A stretch of 64,000 bases of DNA from positions 6,828 to 70,827 of the forward strand of contig JAFTAH010000072.1 in NCBI GenBank assembly GCA_017458625.1, in the 5' to 3' direction. The notes beneath the pieces are model-generated. The model worked only from the letters and a program-made list of their open reading frames with translations, was not told the DNA's origin and made no database searches. A program made the position numbers and the translations under genes. This stretch comes from Kiritimatiellia bacterium (GTDB lineage: Bacteria > Verrucomicrobiota > Kiritimatiellia > CAIQIC01 > Lenti-01). How positions within the stretch are numbered: the first letter of the stretch is position 1; each line of letters opens with the position of its first letter. Below, in pieces: positions 232-51,600 of this stretch.

Positions 232-308
232 TTTCCCGTTTTCCCTCTCCTCCTCCCGTCCCCCCCTCATAAGAGTCTCGCCGGGCGGCCACCGGGCCGC
301 CCCGCCCC

Positions 309-614
309 TCAATGCTCGTGCACCCCGCTTGGCGACAGCCCGCACGAGCCGAAGCTGGACGACCCGCAAAACCGGCACTTCCCCTGCCCGAAGCCATGTT
401 CGTGCTTCCCGTGCGGCGCCAGGCTGCATGTTCCATAGGCCGATGACCCGCAATACATGCACTTGTCCGCCCCGCTGTCCGTATGCTTGTGCACCTTGCC
501 ATACGCACACGACCCATAACTTCCCGACCCGCAAAACGAACAAGTGCCCCACGCCGCCCCGGCAAACAAAAGGCAAAAGGCCACTGCCCCGGTCGTCAGT
601 CGAAATGTTCTCAT
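309..614 (-). CDS. small secreted Cys/His-rich protein with three tandem C-x-[FY]-C-G-S-x-x-[YF]-G-[ST]-C repeats, each followed by a His-rich patch (101 aa)
   Basis: ATG at 614 (MRTFRLTTGAVAFCLLFAGAAWG = signal peptide). Mature part has 12 Cys in ~80 aa arranged as CSFCGSGSYGSC / CMYCGSSAYGTC / CRFCGSSSFGSC interleaved with HKH, HGKHEHG, GVHEH. The longer 207-aa ORF upstream of this ATG is Gly/Arg-rich noise. Confidence 0.5.
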   Translation of the reverse strand: MRTFRLTTGAVAFCLLFAGAAWGTCSFCGSGSYGSCAYGKVHKHTDSGADKCMYCGSSAYGTCSLAPHGKHEHGFGQGKCRFCGSSSFGSCGLSPSGVHEH

Positions 615-697: not shown

Positions 698-780
698 CGC
701 GCATCTGGGTTGTTTGCTCCCCGGGGTGCCAAGGCCGGCGTGCCCCTCTCGTCCGAGTCCCGCCGGGCGGTCCCCGTGCC
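698..780 (+). repeat. copy C of a ~85-105 bp intergenic repeat family (shares GCGCATCTGGGTTGTTTGC head and CCGCCGGGCGG-CCCGTG tail with copy B at 51500-51600; central part diverged)
   Basis: Direct comparison with 51500-51600 and 27524-27627. Confidence 0.45.
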
Positions 781-900
781 GCCCCTCCCCCATCAAGCCC
801 GAAAACACACCCATCCCGCCCTACAAGTTTTGCCCCCGGCCGTCCCGTCGGCCGCCCTGCCCCACTCCCTTCCCACTTTTCACTTGCCCCCACGCGCCGC

Positions 901-5779: not shown

Positions 5780-5876
5780 CCGCGCGCCCTGCCACGGCTA
5801 GGCCAGCATTCCCCACGCCGCCAGCAACCCCGCCAGGCGTTTGGCCCAACAACTTCTCCAACCCCGTCTTGCACAA
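5780..5876 (-). pseudogene. degenerate orphan copy of the N-terminal signal module (MKTRLHFHCARRGWRSCWAKRLAGLLAAWGMLA*) directly after family copy 1
   Basis: Reverse complement of 5780-5876 translates to a 33-aa peptide nearly identical at its start to the 79-aa module at 8832-9071 (MKTELHFHCPRRGWRNWAKHLAWLLPLW...). DNA at 5850-5960 is ~identical to 9046-9130. Confidence 0.4.
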
Positions 5877-5899
5877 TGGAAATGGAGTCGTGTTTTCAT

Positions 5900-6964
5900 C
5901 TACGGGAAGAGAAACGCCTTTTCGTAACGGAAAACATCAAGGTTTTTGAACAGGTTTTCGCTGAATTCGATGTTGCGGTCGTTGGGCACGGGATTGAAAT
6001 AATAGGAAAAATCGCCGAATCCGCCTTCCGTTCCGGGATGGGCTTCAACCTTGAAGTCCCTGTATATTTTCCCATAGTGGGCGGACACGACGTTGCCCTT
6101 TTCGTCCAATTGTGTCCGGACGCGCAAATAGAAACACCTGTCTTGGTTGGGCATCCACCCCCGCTCTTCCGCCTCGTCGTCCGACGGACAGGCGTAATAC
6201 CCCTTCCTCGTCAACCGGGGTTCGTACCCCGACTCCGGCGCCGTCCGCAAAAAGTGCCGGAACGTGTCCTCGGGCAGCAACACGGGAATGACGCCGTTCC
6301 CTTCGCCGGGAAACTCCACGTCCATCTGGAACACAACCATTTCGACGGTTTCATATCCCAGATAGGAAGAGACTTTTCTTTCGCCTCTCGATTCGCGGTG
6401 AATCGTCAACTCCATGTCGGGAATTGTTCCCTTCCCGTAAGGGGAAATCCAATCTCCAGCCTCCAAGTCATAGCCACAGGGACAATCCATTTCGGGGATG
6501 CGGCACCCCTCAAGATGCTTGGCGAACATCGGGACAGGCGTTCCCTTTTTGTTCAGCCGCAACTCCAAGGTTGGATTCCACGGCTGGAACCATGGAGGCG
6601 TTCCCCCCACGACGTTCGTGAAAACGAGGTCCCGCTCGAAACGGTAATACCCGTCGGGCTTGGATTCGACGATGACTTTGCCGCCATCCGCCATCGCCGA
6701 CATGGAACAAAAACCGTCTTTGTCCGTGCGTGCTTTTTTTTGCACGGGAGCGCCAAAACCCCAGCCTTGCCCCCTCTTCAGGGTCGTTCCGAAAAACGCA
6801 TCCACTTCCACCCCTTCCAACGCCGCCCCCGTGTCGAAATCCGTCACCCGGACCGTCACTTTCTGCAAGCTTGGGGCTGCAATCAAATGGACCGCCCCTT
6901 TCCATAACATTGCCACCACCACCCACGCAGGCAGCAACCACAACAAATGTTTAGTCCATTTCAT
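5900..6964 (-). CDS. secreted/membrane-anchored hypothetical protein, family copy 1 (354 aa; N-terminal signal anchor + carboxypeptidase-regulatory-like beta-sandwich motif VTVRVTDFDTG..EGVEV)
   Basis: ATG at 6964; MKWTKHLLWLLPAWVVVAMLWKG signal. ~75% identical to the 9072-10130 product. First ~110 nt and last ~85 nt are identical to the paralog, suggesting gene conversion at the ends. Confidence 0.75.
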   Translation of the reverse strand: MKWTKHLLWLLPAWVVVAMLWKGAVHLIAAPSLQKVTVRVTDFDTGAALEGVEVDAFFGTTLKRGQGWGFGAPVQKKARTDKDGFCSMSAMADGGKVIVESKPDGYYRFERDLVFTNVVGGTPPWFQPWNPTLELRLNKKGTPVPMFAKHLEGCRIPEMDCPCGYDLEAGDWISPYGKGTIPDMELTIHRESRGERKVSSYLGYETVEMVVFQMDVEFPGEGNGVIPVLLPEDTFRHFLRTAPESGYEPRLTRKGYYACPSDDEAEERGWMPNQDRCFYLRVRTQLDEKGNVVSAHYGKIYRDFKVEAHPGTEGGFGDFSYYFNPVPNDRNIEFSENLFKNLDVFRYEKAFLFP

Positions 6965-7369
6965 TCAATGTTCCTTTCTGCACCACAAGATCGAAGATTG
7001 ACTTCGTCTGCCTCCATGGCAACGATTTGGCAGCGGAGGTTTCGCGACCGCCGAACAGGAATCATTGTGGATTCCATGCCATGCCTGCACGCGTTAATCC
7101 TTGCTGGTTCAGGCCCCATGTTTGGAATCCCGGAGACAACTCCGTGTTTGTAGGGGTGGCACGGGCTGGGCGGCGATTCCCGGGACGCACCGCCCGCACC
7201 CCTGCGCCGCCGCGCCCACCGCGGCCGACGCCGACAGCAGCCCAGCCAGTGGCAGGCCCGCCGCCAGGGTCTTTTCATCTTGTCCAGCCGGTTCCTGCCT
7301 TCGGGTCCCAGGTGCACGGGCACTCCTCATCCTCTTTGTTTTCCGCTTTCTTTCCGTTCATTTTCGTTG

Positions 7370-8080
7370 TTATCTCCTCTTTATCAATCCTGAGCGCGGA
7401 CACGGCTTGCGGCACAACAACCAAATGCCAATCCCGCATGAAAACGCCAGACATGTCCAAACAATCGGCATGTACGGCTTTTTCCCTCCAGTCTCGGAAA
7501 ATGCCGTCATGCAGGGAGGGATTGTTCCGGTTGTTCCCTCCGTTTCCGGGGAGTTGGCAGATTCTTCTTTGTCCACCGGCTCTGCCCCCTCATTGTATAT
7601 TTTCCGATTCCACTGCTCCACCTCCCGCACTGCAGTATCTTTCGCGTGACGTTGCAAGTACCCCTGCAAGGGACTCTCGAACGGCCATTGGCACCACCGG
7701 AAAACCCGGGGACTCACTTTCCCCTCATCCGTGAGACGCGCCACCTCGAGCAAAAACGTTCCGAACTCGTCTTCGTCCATGTACCAGCACGAACACAACA
7801 CAAGCGTTTTGGACATTTCGTCCGGCGCCAACTCGTCCAAATGGGCCAGAGCCAAACGCCAAGACTTCGACAATTCCCTTTGCAGAGCCCTGAATTCGGG
7901 TTCATGGGAATATCGAGGAAGGATGTCCACCAAATCGCCCGCTTCGTTCTTGCGGCGTTCTCTTGCATAGCGCTCGGCGTCTCCAATTCGTGCGCGGAGG
8001 CTTTCCAAGCCCCCCCCATACGCGCTGAATGCAAGCGTCACCCAAGCCATGGCCACCAACCATTTCGAACATCTTTTCAT
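7370..8080 (-). CDS. hypothetical protein with N-terminal signal peptide and C-terminal TM helix (236 aa); candidate immunity/partner protein of the upstream amidase-like gene
   Basis: MKRCSKWLVAMAWVTLAFSAYGG signal; C-terminal IVWTCLAFSCGIGIWLLC TM. Start codon overlaps the stop of 8077-8835 (ATGA coupling). Confidence 0.6.
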   Translation of the reverse strand: MKRCSKWLVAMAWVTLAFSAYGGGLESLRARIGDAERYARERRKNEAGDLVDILPRYSHEPEFRALQRELSKSWRLALAHLDELAPDEMSKTLVLCSCWYMDEDEFGTFLLEVARLTDEGKVSPRVFRWCQWPFESPLQGYLQRHAKDTAVREVEQWNRKIYNEGAEPVDKEESANSPETEGTTGTIPPCMTAFSETGGKKPYMPIVWTCLAFSCGIGIWLLCRKPCPRSGLIKRR

Positions 8081-8835
8081 GGTACATATTTCCTGAATCC
8101 GGAGGTTCCGTCCAAAAATTCGTAGTATCGTTTATTAACGGTTCCAGAGGTTCCCGCGCCGATTCCTTCTCCGTCATAATCGACGATTCCAACATGTCCT
8201 GGCCCGCTTGGATCCGGATGGGCCACGATAAATCCCGGTTGAGGATAGGCAGTGTTCTCCAACAGCCAGTGGTCAATCGTGTAAACAAAAGGAAGAATGG
8301 GGTCTGTGGAGGCTGTTCCCGCCCACTGGTTGGCCGTCGGAGGATAATTGTGCAAATAACCATTGATGGCAGGGACGACGGCCCCTGCTTGGACAGCCCG
8401 GTGGGCAACGAAAATGTTGCATTTATAGGCACCGGCTGGAAATTCGGAAAATCCATAATCGGCAGGAACAACGCCTGCCAATGGATAATTGGTACTACCC
8501 AGCCAAGTCCTCGCCAATGCCGAAAAATCCACTTGGAACTGCGTGTCCGCCACACCGACGGCATCGGGATCTCCTACACACCCCAATCCATTGGGCTCTT
8601 CATTGCCTTTCCGCGTGTAAAGCCGTTCAAGTGCCATTGTTGCCGTCACGTGGAGAACGGCTTTCACCCGGAAAATGCCACTCAAATTCATTGCATGGGT
8701 GTAGGTTGTCCCATGCGCATCCGTCCCAAAGGAGGTCCAGTTATCCCAAGTGCCATCCCTCTTCCGGCGTTGATACATCCACGTCGGCTCATCGCCAAGT
8801 GGAACATAGGTGCCGGGATAAATGCCCGTTTTCAT
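8077..8835 (-). CDS. papain-fold (CHAP/NlpC-P60-like) putative amidase/peptidase, no signal peptide (252 aa)
   Basis: Cys in AGAYKCNIFVAHRAVQAG and His in GFIVAHPDPSGPGHVGIVDYDG, in the order and spacing typical of CHAP/Tae-like Cys-His hydrolases. ATG at 8835 overlaps the TGA of the preceding module ORF (ATGA). Confidence 0.55.
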   Translation of the reverse strand: MKTGIYPGTYVPLGDEPTWMYQRRKRDGTWDNWTSFGTDAHGTTYTHAMNLSGIFRVKAVLHVTATMALERLYTRKGNEEPNGLGCVGDPDAVGVADTQFQVDFSALARTWLGSTNYPLAGVVPADYGFSEFPAGAYKCNIFVAHRAVQAGAVVPAINGYLHNYPPTANQWAGTASTDPILPFVYTIDHWLLENTAYPQPGFIVAHPDPSGPGHVGIVDYDGEGIGAGTSGTVNKRYYEFLDGTSGFRKYVP

Positions 8836-9071
8836 GGTGACTTCGCTCCCATTGAGAAAAACGCCTTGACTTCGACTCCTTTCAAGGGCTCGCCCGTGTC
8901 GAAGTCCGACACCCTAACCGTCACTTTTCTCATCCCTGCCGCCAGCGATACGCCCGCAGCGCCATGCCACGCCAACATTGCCACCACCCACAGCGGCAAC
9001 AACCATGCCAGATGTTTGGCCCAGTTTCGCCAACCCCGTCTTGGACAATGGAAATGGAGTTCCGTTTTCAT
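8832..9071 (-). CDS. 79-aa ORF encoding only the shared N-terminal signal + beta-sandwich module (MKTELHFHCPRRGWRNWAKHLAWLLPLWVVAMLAW...KVTVRVSDFDTGEPLKGVEV)
   Basis: Homologous to the N-termini of 5900-6964 and 9072-10130. Begins immediately after the stop of family copy 2 and is translationally coupled to the amidase-like ORF. Confidence 0.45.
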   Translation of the reverse strand: MKTELHFHCPRRGWRNWAKHLAWLLPLWVVAMLAWHGAAGVSLAAGMRKVTVRVSDFDTGEPLKGVEVKAFFSMGAKSP

Positions 9072-10130
9072 CTACGGGAAGAGAAACGCCTTTTCGTAAC
9101 GGAAAACATCAAGGTTTTTGAACAGGTTTTCGCCGAACTCGACGTTCCGGTCGTTGGGTTCCGGGTTGAAATAGTAGCTGAAATCGCCGAACACTCCTTG
9201 CATGCCGGGATGGGGACTGACTTCGAAATCGCCGTAAATCTTGCCGTAGTGGGCCGACACGACATTGCCCTTTTCGTCCAACTGCGTCCGGACGCGCAAA
9301 TAGAAACACCTGTCCTTGTTGGGTATCCACCCCCGCTCTTCCGCATCGTCGTCCGACGGACAGGCGTAATATCCCTTCCTCGTCAAACGGGGTTCGTACC
9401 CCGACTCCGGCGCCGTCCGCAAAAAATGGCGGAACGTGTCCTCGGGGAGAAGAACGGGAATGACGCCGTTTCCCGCACCGGGGAACTCCACGTCCATCTG
9501 GAAAACGACCCCTTCGTAGGGACGGGGTTCAAGCCATCCCCCGTATGGTTTTTCTCCCTTCACCTCCTCGCGGCGGATGGCAAACAAAATGTCGGAGGTC
9601 TTTCCCTTTCCGAAGGGCGCCACCCAATCTCCCGCTTCCAAGTCATAGCCGCAGGGAACATCCGTTTTAGGTAGGCGGCAACACATGAGATGCTTCGCGA
9701 ACATCGGCACGGGAGTTCCTTTCCGGTTCAACCGCAACTCCAGCAGGGGATTCCAGGGCAAAAGCCGCGGGGGTGTTCCCCATGTCACGTTCGTGAACAC
9801 CAGTTTTCTTTCAAACCGATAATACCCTTCGGGTTTGGATTCGACGACCACGCTTCCCCCGTCCGCCATCGCCGATATGGAGCAAAGTCCCTCCTTGTCG
9901 GTGCTGGCGGTTTTCTCGACGGGCCCCTTTTTTCCAAATGCCTGTCCCCACATCGAGAAATGGACATTGACCCCAACGCCCTCCAACGGCTCCCCCGTCT
10001 CGAAATCCGACACCCGGACCGTCACTTTCTGCAAGCTTGGGGCTGCAATCAAATGGACCGCCCCTTTCCATAACATTGCCACCACCACCCACGCAGGCAG
10101 CAACCACAACAAATGTTTAGTCCATTTCAT
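9072..10130 (-). CDS. secreted/membrane-anchored hypothetical protein, family copy 2 (352 aa)
   Basis: ATG at 10130; paralog of 5900-6964 with identical N- and C-terminal ends. Its start overlaps the last 14 nt of gene X (10117-10529). Confidence 0.75.
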   Translation of the reverse strand: MKWTKHLLWLLPAWVVVAMLWKGAVHLIAAPSLQKVTVRVSDFETGEPLEGVGVNVHFSMWGQAFGKKGPVEKTASTDKEGLCSISAMADGGSVVVESKPEGYYRFERKLVFTNVTWGTPPRLLPWNPLLELRLNRKGTPVPMFAKHLMCCRLPKTDVPCGYDLEAGDWVAPFGKGKTSDILFAIRREEVKGEKPYGGWLEPRPYEGVVFQMDVEFPGAGNGVIPVLLPEDTFRHFLRTAPESGYEPRLTRKGYYACPSDDDAEERGWIPNKDRCFYLRVRTQLDEKGNVVSAHYGKIYGDFEVSPHPGMQGVFGDFSYYFNPEPNDRNVEFGENLFKNLDVFRYEKAFLFP

Positions 10131-10529
10131 TCGGTTCCGCCTTCGCGAAATCGGTCGTTCCCCGCCACAATTCCGCGCCGCTTCCGTCGCGCAACACCGT
10201 CGCCCCGCCCTCCCGCTCCGACGACACGGGCACCACCCACGTCGCCAAGTCGCGCGTCGCGGGGGCCGTATCCCATCGCGGCGAAAACTCCTCCCACGCC
10301 GCCGGCCATGTCCCCGCGTCCTGCACCAACTCCCCGTCCCCCGGCGTCATGCGCCGAAACTGGTTCCGCAAAATCTCCAGCCGCTCCGCGAAATCCTCCT
10401 CACCCAGCACCACCGCCTCGCCCGGCCCGTCCCCCGCCTCGTCGGCATCCCCAGCGGCAAACGACGGCGGAACACACAAAAATGCTGCAACACCAAGCCA
10501 ATCAACCAGCCCAATCTCTTCATGTGCAT
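10117..10529 (-). CDS. truncated and probably frameshifted paralog (gene X) of the partial gene at 63408->; secreted hypothetical protein
   Basis: In-frame segment VVLGEEDFAERLEILRNQFRRMTPGDGELVQDAGTWPAAWEEFSPRWDTAPATRDLATWVVPVS...TDFAKAEPNEMD* aligns with DIVVLGEVDLAERAEIWRNQYRRMTPGDGTFVQDVGAWPAAWEEFGSHWDAAPATRDLATWLVPVS...ATDFAKPESAN of the 63408 gene. The only ATG (10529, MHMKRLGWLIGLVL) is in the +1 frame; the homologous frame has no ATG near the signal-like segment, so this is a frameshift or non-canonical start. Confidence 0.4.
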
Positions 10530-27523: not shown

Positions 27524-27627
27524 CCACCGTGGGTTGTTTGCAAGCTTGCCCGAGGGCAATTCCGGGAAAGACGCAAACGCCCGGCAGGCTCGGTCGGGCC
27601 CGACCCAAAACAACCCAGATGCGCCCC
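27524..27627 (+). repeat. copy A of the ~100-bp MITE-like/hairpin repeat family (terminal inverted repeats TGGGTTGTTT ... AAACAACCCAGATGCGC around a conserved core GGGCAATTCCGGGAAAGACGCAAACGCCCGGCAGGCT)
   Basis: Core ~90% identical to 51517-51575. The ends are reverse complements of each other. Lies between pgi and argG. Confidence 0.6.
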
Positions 27628-51499: not shown

Positions 51500-51600
51500 G
51501 CGCATCTGGGTTGTTTGCAACCTCGCTCAAGGGCAATTCCGGGAAAGCTGCAAACGCCCGGCAGGCTTGGTAGGGACCAACCGCCGGGCGGCCCGTGTGC
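51500..51600 (+). repeat. copy B of the ~100-bp repeat family (GCGCATCTGGGTTGTTTGCAA...GGGCAATTCCGGGAAAGCTGCAAACGCCCGGCAGGCT...CCGCCGGGCGGCCCGTG)
   Basis: See copies A and C; sits between the secY terminator and the YfhO-like gene. Confidence 0.6.

Follow-up and report, generated by a model that had tools for sequence, protein, structure and literature searches.

The present analysis concerns a small gene found near one end of a 64,000-nucleotide (nt) stretch of contig JAFTAH010000072.1 (assembly GCA_017458625.1, Kiritimatiellia bacterium), the whole of which is hereafter called the window. Its product, a Cys- and His-rich protein of 101 amino acids (aa), appears to represent the exported branch of a triple Cys3His knuckle domain that is widespread, undescribed and in its main form cytoplasmic. 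With a probability that we place slightly above even, the protein is an exported member of a domain with three Cys3His (probably Zn) knuckles and acts as a structural or binding module. A previous sequence-only reading of the same DNA had recognized a small secreted protein of three Cys/His repeats at this place, in agreement with the translation and the homologues described below. That reading was essentially right apart from its residue counts; its guess of metal binding was reasonable, and the family seems to be one of small Cys/His metal-binding domains.

In detail, the Sec signal peptide would be cut by signal peptidase I (SPase I) after AWG23, releasing a periplasmic or extracellular protein of 78 residues, whose three repeats would fold together as one compact domain. 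Each repeat would form a metal knuckle, made of a C-x2-C-G turn, a third Cys located 7-8 residues further on and the first His of an H-x-H motif. The His ligand would sit on the neighboring strand of a short hairpin, with one metal ion per repeat and three Cys3His sites per chain, most likely filled by Zn(II). The metal sites would be structural, and the folded mini-domain would serve as a binding or recognition module and not as a metal store. In the Kiritimatiellae clade, its likely partners would be periplasmic proteins similar to formylglycine-generating enzyme (FGE)-sulfatases (C-type-lectin fold), some of which carry a fused Ser/Thr kinase and are encoded in ECF-sigma operons.

Conservation and distribution of the repeat domain

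The search of 5.8 billion proteins returned 17 matches, most of them of ~101-103 aa and with 60-78% identity. One is labelled Kiritimatiellae and the rest originate from ENA, Logan or JGI metagenomes. The close homologues, with 65-75% identity and ~101 aa, belong to uncultured Kiritimatiellae of the ruminant gut. Close relatives in GTDB genomes belong to metagenome-assembled genomes of Kiritimatiellae from goat, sheep and yak rumen, and an identical protein is called on 20 metagenome contigs. Variation of the Cys positions among homologues, which would have spoken against the first reading, was looked for: all repeat Cys, as well as all repeat His, are kept in the 17 sequences. In comparisons with three homologous genes, the differences at codon positions 1/2/3 are 23/18/48, 20/22/53 and 18/23/50, with 31-37 synonymous codon changes. 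The small gene is real and this frame is under purifying selection.

The pre-protein consists of the signal segment MRTFRLTTGAVAFCLLFAGAAWG followed by the mature part TCSFCGSGSYGSCAYGKVHKHTDSGADKCMYCGSSAYGTCSLAPHGKHEHGFGQGKCRFCGSSSFGSCGLSPSGVHEH, which starts with TCSFCGS and ends with VHEH. The signal segment has a positive n-region, a hydrophobic core of 16 residues and A-x-G/A at positions -3/-1 (AWG before T), and no lipobox was seen on inspection. Among the homologues its sequence varies, its hydrophobicity is kept, and T24-C25 is invariant. This n/h/c layout with its A-x-G, together with the character conserved across homologues, supports the signal peptide predicted earlier.

The three repeats start at C25, C52 and C80 with a period of 27-28 residues and read CSFCGSGSYGSC..HKH, CMYCGSSAYGTC..HGKHEH and CRFCGSSSFGSC..HEH. 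The mature protein has 78 aa, nine Cys (three in each repeat) and seven His, and a tenth Cys lies within the signal peptide; the previous counts of 80 aa, 12 Cys and ~9 His have to be lowered accordingly. Cys makes up ~12% of the mature protein, neither CC nor CxC occurs, and a conserved Tyr or Phe is present in every repeat. The His-rich patch reported after each repeat corresponds to a conserved H-x-H, the first His of which is invariant family-wide, so the residues stand and the wording "patch" does not.

The family extends far beyond these close homologues. A profile of the 17 sequences, searched against 1.84 billion cluster representatives (a library clustered at 50% identity), gave 256 proteins at E<=1e-3, of which 99 reach E<=1e-10. 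A degenerate DNA pattern of one repeat found at least 120 stretches in GTDB species genomes, and two pattern scans of IMG/VR detected about 50 viral contigs with the repeat. The taxa among the matches listed are Treponema (Spirochaetota), Kiritimatiellae, Opitutales, Verrucomicrobiales, Planctomycetota, Lentisphaerae, Fibrobacter (Fibrobacterota), Riflebacteria, Alpha-, Beta- and Gammaproteobacteria, Desulfovibrio, Acidobacteriota, Acidimicrobiia and Bacteroidota. Carriers available in culture include Intestinicryptomonas porci, with the secreted type (L026), and Dyella monticola and Methylocystis sp. B8, with the cytoplasmic type.

The consensus of the repeat is C-x-[YFW]-C-G-S-x2-Y-G-x(1,2)-C-x2-S-P-x3-H-x-H. 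In a cross-phylum alignment of 50 sequences, the invariant columns per repeat are C, C, (G), C and H, the G being invariant in repeats 1 and 2 (G34 and G61). In repeats 1 and 2, at least 90% of the sequences retain the second His. The last residue of repeat 3 varies within the family, mostly among K, R and H, and therefore it is not an obligatory ligand. The window protein aligns to the family over its full length and has all 12 of the 12 invariant positions (C, C, C, H in each of the three repeats), with repeat 1 of its clade being a shortened variant that lacks S-P.

The commonest form is a protein of ~82 aa with M-S-(T)-K directly before the first Cys ("MSK-C..."); it has no signal peptide and is therefore considered cytoplasmic. 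By a simple hydrophobicity rule, a signal peptide is present in about 62 of the 229 collected proteins and at 20 of the 121 loci, mostly in Kiritimatiellae, Opitutales and Treponema. In seven cases the domain is located at the C-terminus of a larger protein (including P0049, P0065, P0095, P0079 and P0035/P0093). The partners in these fusions include two papain-family peptidases with a zinc ribbon, a beta-trefoil protein with a signal peptide (DUF7910/fascin-like), a lipoprotein of 695 aa and membrane proteins whose N-domain is periplasmic.

The phage contigs (L136-L185, up to 250 kb; e.g., L141:2382-2441) mostly encode proteins of ~185 aa, in which two N-terminal repeats are followed by a helical C-domain with the conserved motif SPLDRLYK. 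The repeats of these phage proteins had no match in PHROGs. The C-domain of variant L156, the only scanned variant with matches, corresponds to phrog_2086 and phrog_18642, both of unknown function. As a separate observation, an 88-aa member of the cytoplasmic type (L010/L011, gene 6001-6267 of a 226-kb contig) lies amid dNK, dUTPase, HNH and TnpB (IS605 OrfB) genes, a setting which looks like that of a jumbo phage or mobile element.

Each repeat carries a position-specific signature which is conserved across phyla, that is, HEH..DE in the first, H[RK]HG.G in the second and HE[KRH] at the end of the third. This is an indication that the triplication is old and that the three units behave as one domain.

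Predicted fold and comparison with known metal-binding domains

AlphaFold2 with the family alignment modelled the window protein with an overall pLDDT of 86, a pLDDT of 88-97 per 10-residue block in the mature part, and a pTM of 0.71. The respective values for the cytoplasmic prototype are 91 (pLDDT) and 0.76 (pTM). Both models show almost no regular secondary structure except beta-bridges, which pair the segments of the third Cys and the His within a repeat. Foldseek against PDB and BFVD found no significant neighbor (best E 2.9). In this way, the homology search and structure prediction suggested by the sequence-only reading have provided a large family and a confident model of the mature part.

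The residues C, C, C and H are invariant also in cytoplasmic relatives, which cannot use disulfides, and this argues for metal ligation and not for disulfides. The architecture is fixed and the domain recurs as a module in proteins that are otherwise unrelated, which speaks for a role in structure or recognition and not for bulk storage of metal.

No family was identified when the window protein and some 40 relatives were scanned against Pfam, NCBIfam, PHROGs and PADLOC, as the first reading had anticipated when it could not assign the protein. Database names are all "hypothetical protein", and no precomputed Pfam domain exists on the members. When Pfam was searched at E<=1 with all 50 members, the only matches were sub-threshold zinc knuckles of 6-15 residues (PyrI_C, zf-CHCC, Zn_ribbon, DZR). 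The best relatives reach 17-19 bits against Zn_ribbon_1, Zn_ribbon_3 and DZR, for which the cut-offs are 25-27, and the window protein is unmatched. The PDB sequence search with the profile found nothing. Tblastn against phage and plasmid records gave no match, in a search where the low-complexity filter may have masked the query. In the literature on the motif, on secreted Cys-rich proteins of Kiritimatiellae and on FGE-sulfatase proteins with kinase or ECF partners, no account of the family was found.

One similarity was rejected. Designed "Bagel" beta-propellers (PDB 8prj/8prs/8pra) matched residues 38-92 in phmmer with E from 2e-8 to 4e-10, and this is an artefact of repeat summation. The score adds up a weak match (G.VH...G.D..Y.GS....P.GK) that recurs on 4-8 identical blades, with individual E >4 and no aligned Cys.

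Among known domains, zinc ribbons and rubredoxin-type knuckles share the C-x2-C-G turn which opens each repeat of the family, and the only Pfam similarities are to such knuckles. Unlike a zinc ribbon, the repeat has a single C-x2-C, and the second half of the site consists of a Cys and a His on a short hairpin (C-x2-S-P-x3-H). Moreover, three units are fused in one domain, all scores stay under the gathering cut-offs, and Foldseek gave no match in PDB.

The haloarchaeal C(P)XCG micro-proteins of Haloferax volcanii are described, in PMC6562870, PMC10716476 and PMC11241148, as very small, stand-alone, predicted zinc binders with mostly unknown partners. They resemble the window protein in being small stand-alone proteins with CxxCG motifs, three of which occur in the latter. 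They pair two motifs per zinc and are archaeal, cytoplasmic and shorter than 70 aa, whereas the present family appears to pair one CxxCG with C...H, in triplicate, occurs in bacteria and phages and has exported variants. The two groups showed no similarity in sequence.

Tandem Cys/His metal sites with a period of 27-28 residues are also reminiscent of eukaryotic C2H2 arrays and LIM domains. C2H2 fingers appear as weak sequence matches in PDB (E 0.002-1), and LIM domains are the top Foldseek matches, which are non-significant (E 4-9). The C2H2 finger is C-x2-4-C-x12-H-x3-5-H with a beta-beta-alpha fold, whereas the spacing of the family is C-x2-C-x7-8-C-x5-7-H-x-H and no helix is modelled in the repeats. 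In Pfam, the window protein has no C2H2 match.

Neighboring genes and competing roles

The only FGE-like gene of the 64-kb window encodes a 443-aa protein (table 1). The clade of the window protein is marked by HKHTD after repeat 1 and comprises eight distinct genomic contexts. In five of the eight (the window, L007, L073/L091, L186 and L187/188), an FGE-like gene lies upstream on the same strand. For instance, the order in L007 is ECF sigma, a Ser/Thr kinase with an FGE-like domain, an FGE-like protein, the small gene, HTH_31 and a second FGE-like protein. In L073/L091 a kinase-FGE gene, an FGE-like gene and the small gene follow each other with gaps of 30 and 117 nt, and in L186 the gap between the FGE-like gene and the small gene is 70 nt. 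Two more distant relatives, L077 (signal-peptide type) and L012/13 (with an ambiguous N-terminus), have an FGE-like gene directly downstream. Among loci of the cytoplasmic type, three out of 98, L012/13 included, have an FGE-like gene anywhere in 8 kb. The association in the close clade (5/8) differs from that in the cytoplasmic type (3/98) with a Fisher p of about 3e-5, for contexts which share ancestry.

Sulfatase-type substrates of FGE carry a C/S-x-P-x-R motif. Such a motif is absent from the sequence of the small protein, in which the conserved motif is instead C-x-x-S-P-x3-H. None of the FGE-like neighbors inspected has the canonical FGE Cys pair. These two findings favor binding or sensing over formylglycine chemistry. 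On the basis of the neighborhood, the FGE-like protein of the window is a possible functional partner of the small protein, which is the weakest part of the proposed explanation.

Across about 120 clustered loci, no universal neighbor exists. Genes for AAA_14/DUF4143 ATPases and for an HTH_31 regulator are often located close to the small gene and look like companions of a variable region. No metal transporter, metal-sensing regulator or resistance gene was present in the loci annotated with Pfam (L001-L015 and L186-L188), and none recurs among the neighbors of the ~120 loci. The same applies to DUF692/MNIO, DUF2063, radical-SAM, YcaO and peptidase-exporter genes. In Opitutales and Intestinicryptomonas (L026:2007-2916, L063:6683-7282 and L080:1523-1888), genes of small lipoproteins or membrane proteins precede the secreted-type gene; the lipoproteins of L063 and L080 have similar CGCSK..DYSS N-termini, a case of clade-specific synteny.

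Several points weigh against an exported Cys3His knuckle domain with FGE-like partners. Metal binding across the family is deduced from sequence, and the Cys3His geometry would follow from the invariance of the residues and the DSSP pattern of the models. Cys-based Zn sites are unusual outside the cytoplasm, and an oxidising periplasm would drive thiols to disulfides; against this objection stands the apparent nature of the hosts as gut anaerobes. Each repeat offers five potential ligands (three Cys and two His), with a sixth in repeat 2, and this would also suit labile or multi-metal binding. As for the partner, three genes intervene between the small gene and the FGE-like gene of the window, 2.1 kb away. 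Two of the eight clade contexts have no FGE-like neighbor in their Pfam-annotated gene lists, and in a third (L065) tblastn gave no FGE-like match. In addition, FGE-like genes are common in genomes of the Planctomycetes-Verrucomicrobia-Chlamydiae (PVC) group and the clade contexts share ancestry, so that the association may be inherited synteny instead of functional coupling.

The strongest competitor, to which we give a real but clearly minor share of the probability, is a periplasmic metal buffer, scavenger or metallochaperone. In a gut rich in sulfide and poor in metal, such a protein would reversibly bind Zn, Ni, Co or Cu and would store the metal, sequester it or pass it on, possibly to neighbors in the envelope. 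More than four potential ligands per repeat (H-x-H, and PHGKHEH in repeat 2), the small size and predicted export of the protein, and hosts that are ruminant-gut anaerobes are all in its favor. The same is true for the conservation of the second His in repeats 1 and 2, which a Cys3His site does not need, and for the fact that true FGEs are cuproenzymes (PMC12452194). The absence of metal-homeostasis genes among the neighbors described above argues against this role, as does the upstream DNA, in which visual inspection, as opposed to a formal scan, revealed no AT-rich palindrome of the Zur/Fur type. A rigid architecture with a confidently predicted fold, and the reuse of the domain in cytoplasmic, phage and fusion proteins, suggest a structural module, and the inspected FGE-like neighbors do not have the Cys pair of true FGEs.

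The sequence-only reading had proposed a periplasmic metal-binding protein, possibly a metallothionein-like buffer. Its first part seems the most reasonable chemistry, given the invariant C, C, C, H and the zinc-knuckle similarities, and its second part is disfavored by fixed stoichiometric sites, the confident fold and the lack of any metal-homeostasis family that recurs near the ~120 loci. Metallothioneins have a very high Cys content, Cys-Cys and Cys-x-Cys clusters and few aromatic residues. The window protein resembles them and His-rich storage proteins in being small and rich in Cys and His. It differs in its lower Cys content, the lack of such clusters, the conserved Tyr/Phe and Gly, the confident fold and the fixed architecture of three repeats.

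A more specific proposal, speculative and with a low probability, extends the knuckle reading. The exported triple Cys3His domain would be an extracytoplasmic "zinc-finger-like" ligand or co-sensor, bound, or modified on its Cys/His, by FGE-like domains. The pair would feed Ser/Thr-kinase/ECF-sigma signalling of the envelope in PVC bacteria, and the cytoplasmic and phage versions would represent a general recognition module.

It is improbable that the protein is in essence a Sec-exported substrate of post-translational modification, similar to bufferins or HvfA, with Cys (or Cys/His) altered by the adjacent FGE-like protein or by an unlinked MNIO or radical-SAM enzyme. PMC11626156, PMC11252979 and PMC12452194 describe bufferins and HvfA as MNIO-modified, Sec-exported metallophore peptides containing Cys, and in the first two of these sources a Sec signal peptide with conserved Cys appears as the hallmark of the precursor. 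Like them, the window protein has a Sec signal peptide in front of a small, metal-related periplasmic domain that contains Cys, and FGE-family genes are recurrent neighbors. Its relative P0025 has a weak full-length match to the NCBIfam model of HvfA (NF050188; E 0.012), the 16 bits of which are far from the cut-off of 95 bits. The window protein itself matches neither this model nor those of DUF2282, BUF_6/12Cys and the EGKCG type. No MNIO or partner genes were found near the window gene, and the metal would in this case be coordinated by the side chains as such, so that modified heterocycles would not be required. The missing modification enzymes in the Pfam-annotated loci, the lack of a C-x-P-x-R motif in the small protein and of the catalytic Cys pair in the inspected FGE-like neighbors all speak against modification. 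So does the predominance, within the family, of cytoplasmic stand-alone proteins with a confidently predicted fold. The bacteriocin or RiPP (ribosomally made peptide with post-translational modifications) precursor considered earlier loses ground in the same way, with no maturase or dedicated exporter in the annotated loci, none recurrent, and a domain which is also fused to large proteins.

A disulfide-knotted secreted toxin or bacteriocin is still harder to sustain and is regarded as very improbable. The protein is small, secreted by prediction and rich in Cys, and its context varies among close relatives, but nine mature Cys cannot all pair, the His are as invariant as the Cys, and cytoplasmic as well as phage proteins show the identical pattern. 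The annotated loci contain neither an immunity gene nor an export gene, and PADLOC and PHROGs gave no match. The disulfide knot suggested by the first reading is thus disfavored.

A chance open reading frame (ORF) in GC-rich DNA, which does yield many long mechanical ORFs here, or a real product from the 207-aa Gly/Arg-rich extended frame, can practically be dismissed: conservation and synonymous-site bias concern the 101-aa frame only, hundreds of relatives exist, and every homologue begins at the same Met, 24 residues before the first repeat, which in the window follows a correctly spaced Shine-Dalgarno sequence. The longer frame is a mechanical ORF, as the sequence-only reading had suspected.

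Surroundings of the gene and wider meaning

The features of the gene and its surroundings are collected in table 1.

Table 1. Positions of the small gene, its parts and related elements in the window
Feature	Position	Strand	Details	Basis
Coding sequence of the 101-aa pre-protein	309..614	minus	ATG at 614; stop 311-309 included	translation, homologues, codon-position bias
Sec-type signal peptide MRTFRLTTGAVAFCLLFAGAAWG, residues 1-23	546..614	minus	predicted SPase I cut before T24	sequence reading
Repeat 1, residues 25-44, C25-x2-C28-x7-C36-x5-H42-x-H44	483..542	minus	invariant C25, C28, G34, C36, H42	50-sequence cross-phylum alignment
Repeat 2, residues 52-73, C52-x2-C55-x7-C63-x7-H71-x-H73, extra H68	396..461	minus	invariant C52, C55, G61, C63, H71	50-sequence cross-phylum alignment
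Repeat 3, residues 80-101, C80-x2-C83-x7-C91-x7-H99-x-H101 (C-terminus)	312..377	minus	invariant C80, C83, C91, H99	50-sequence cross-phylum alignment
Shine-Dalgarno AGGAG	625-621	minus	6 nt 5' of ATG	read from sequence
Candidate sigma-70-type promoter	679-651	minus	-35 TTGGCA 679-674, 17-nt spacer, -10 TATAAA 656-651	sequence reading, inferred
GC-rich hairpin GGGCGGCC-CGGT-GGCCGCCC	273..303	minus	begins 5 nt past stop codon	minimum free energy -27.1 kcal/mol, z = -2.3
Second copy of 31-nt GC element	755..785	minus	5' of promoter, 3' of yraN-like gene (901-1353)	pattern search; weak fold
Intergenic repeat of ~76-100 nt, starts TGGGTTGTTTGC	27530-27605, 51507-51582		full copies; partial copy at 698-716	
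Membrane-anchored periplasmic FGE-sulfatase-like protein, 443 aa	2752..4083	minus (same strand)	2.1 kb upstream	PF03781 on identical gene in L001

The candidate promoter was overlooked by the consensus scan, because the latter demands T at position 6 of the -10 hexamer. The hairpin behind the gene has a GC stem of 8 bp and no U-tract after the stem; judged from its sequence, it is probably a terminator for both the small gene and the convergent AAA_14/DUF4143 gene. It belongs to a 31-nt GC-rich element (GAGTCYCGCCGGGCGG..CCG.GCCGCCCC), for which the pattern search found two matches in the window, flanking the small gene, versus 0 expected. The Rfam scan of positions 1-2200 of the window found no RNA family.

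Upstream of the small gene lie two blocks, one of 19 nt (698-716) and one of ~21 nt, which it shares with the intergenic elements at 27530-27605 and 51507-51582. Thus, of the copy C of a ~100-bp repeat previously reported at this place, the repeat is present and the copy is a partial one. The full copies are located directly 3' of pgi and secY and the partial copy 3' of the yraN-like gene; the copy at 27.5 kb has the inverted sequence CAAAACAACCCA at its end. The element looks like a 3' intergenic element similar to a repetitive extragenic palindrome (REP) or a miniature inverted-repeat transposable element (MITE). A function of the upstream repeat as an operator was considered and rejected, since the full copies sit downstream of pgi and secY.

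Further upstream, at positions 1357-1998, a glycogen phosphorylase is represented by no more than its C-terminal ~190-210 aa (PF00343 on the 189-aa product), which suggests a gene remnant, and a 200-aa ORF at 2047-2649 lies in a stretch of 47% GC, compared with 65-70% around it. The two suggest that the DNA separating the small gene from the FGE-like gene has undergone an insertion or a rearrangement. The truncated phosphorylase, the low-GC insert and the AAA_14/DUF4143 and HTH_31 neighbors are features of a variable region. A tandem array (1860-2011) of 4-5 units of 32 nt, each with the palindrome TTTCCAnnnnTGGAAA, is placed between the phosphorylase fragment and the low-GC ORF and might be an iteron or operator array. 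At 5854-10132, direct repeats of 168-300 nt (63-93% identity) mark two or three paralogs in tandem, the products of which have ~350 aa and match no Pfam family (L001 485-1543 and 3651-4715).

The domain is present in hundreds of clusters, in many phyla and in phages, and neither a curated model nor a solved structure or description was found for it; its description would annotate many small "hypothetical" proteins. The cultured carriers make experiments feasible. The recurrent pairing with FGE-like periplasmic proteins offers a way into an abundant PVC domain of unknown role. Finally, exported thiolate metal sites are uncommon and, if confirmed in this branch of the family, they would bear on the redox state of the periplasm and on the metal economy of gut anaerobes.

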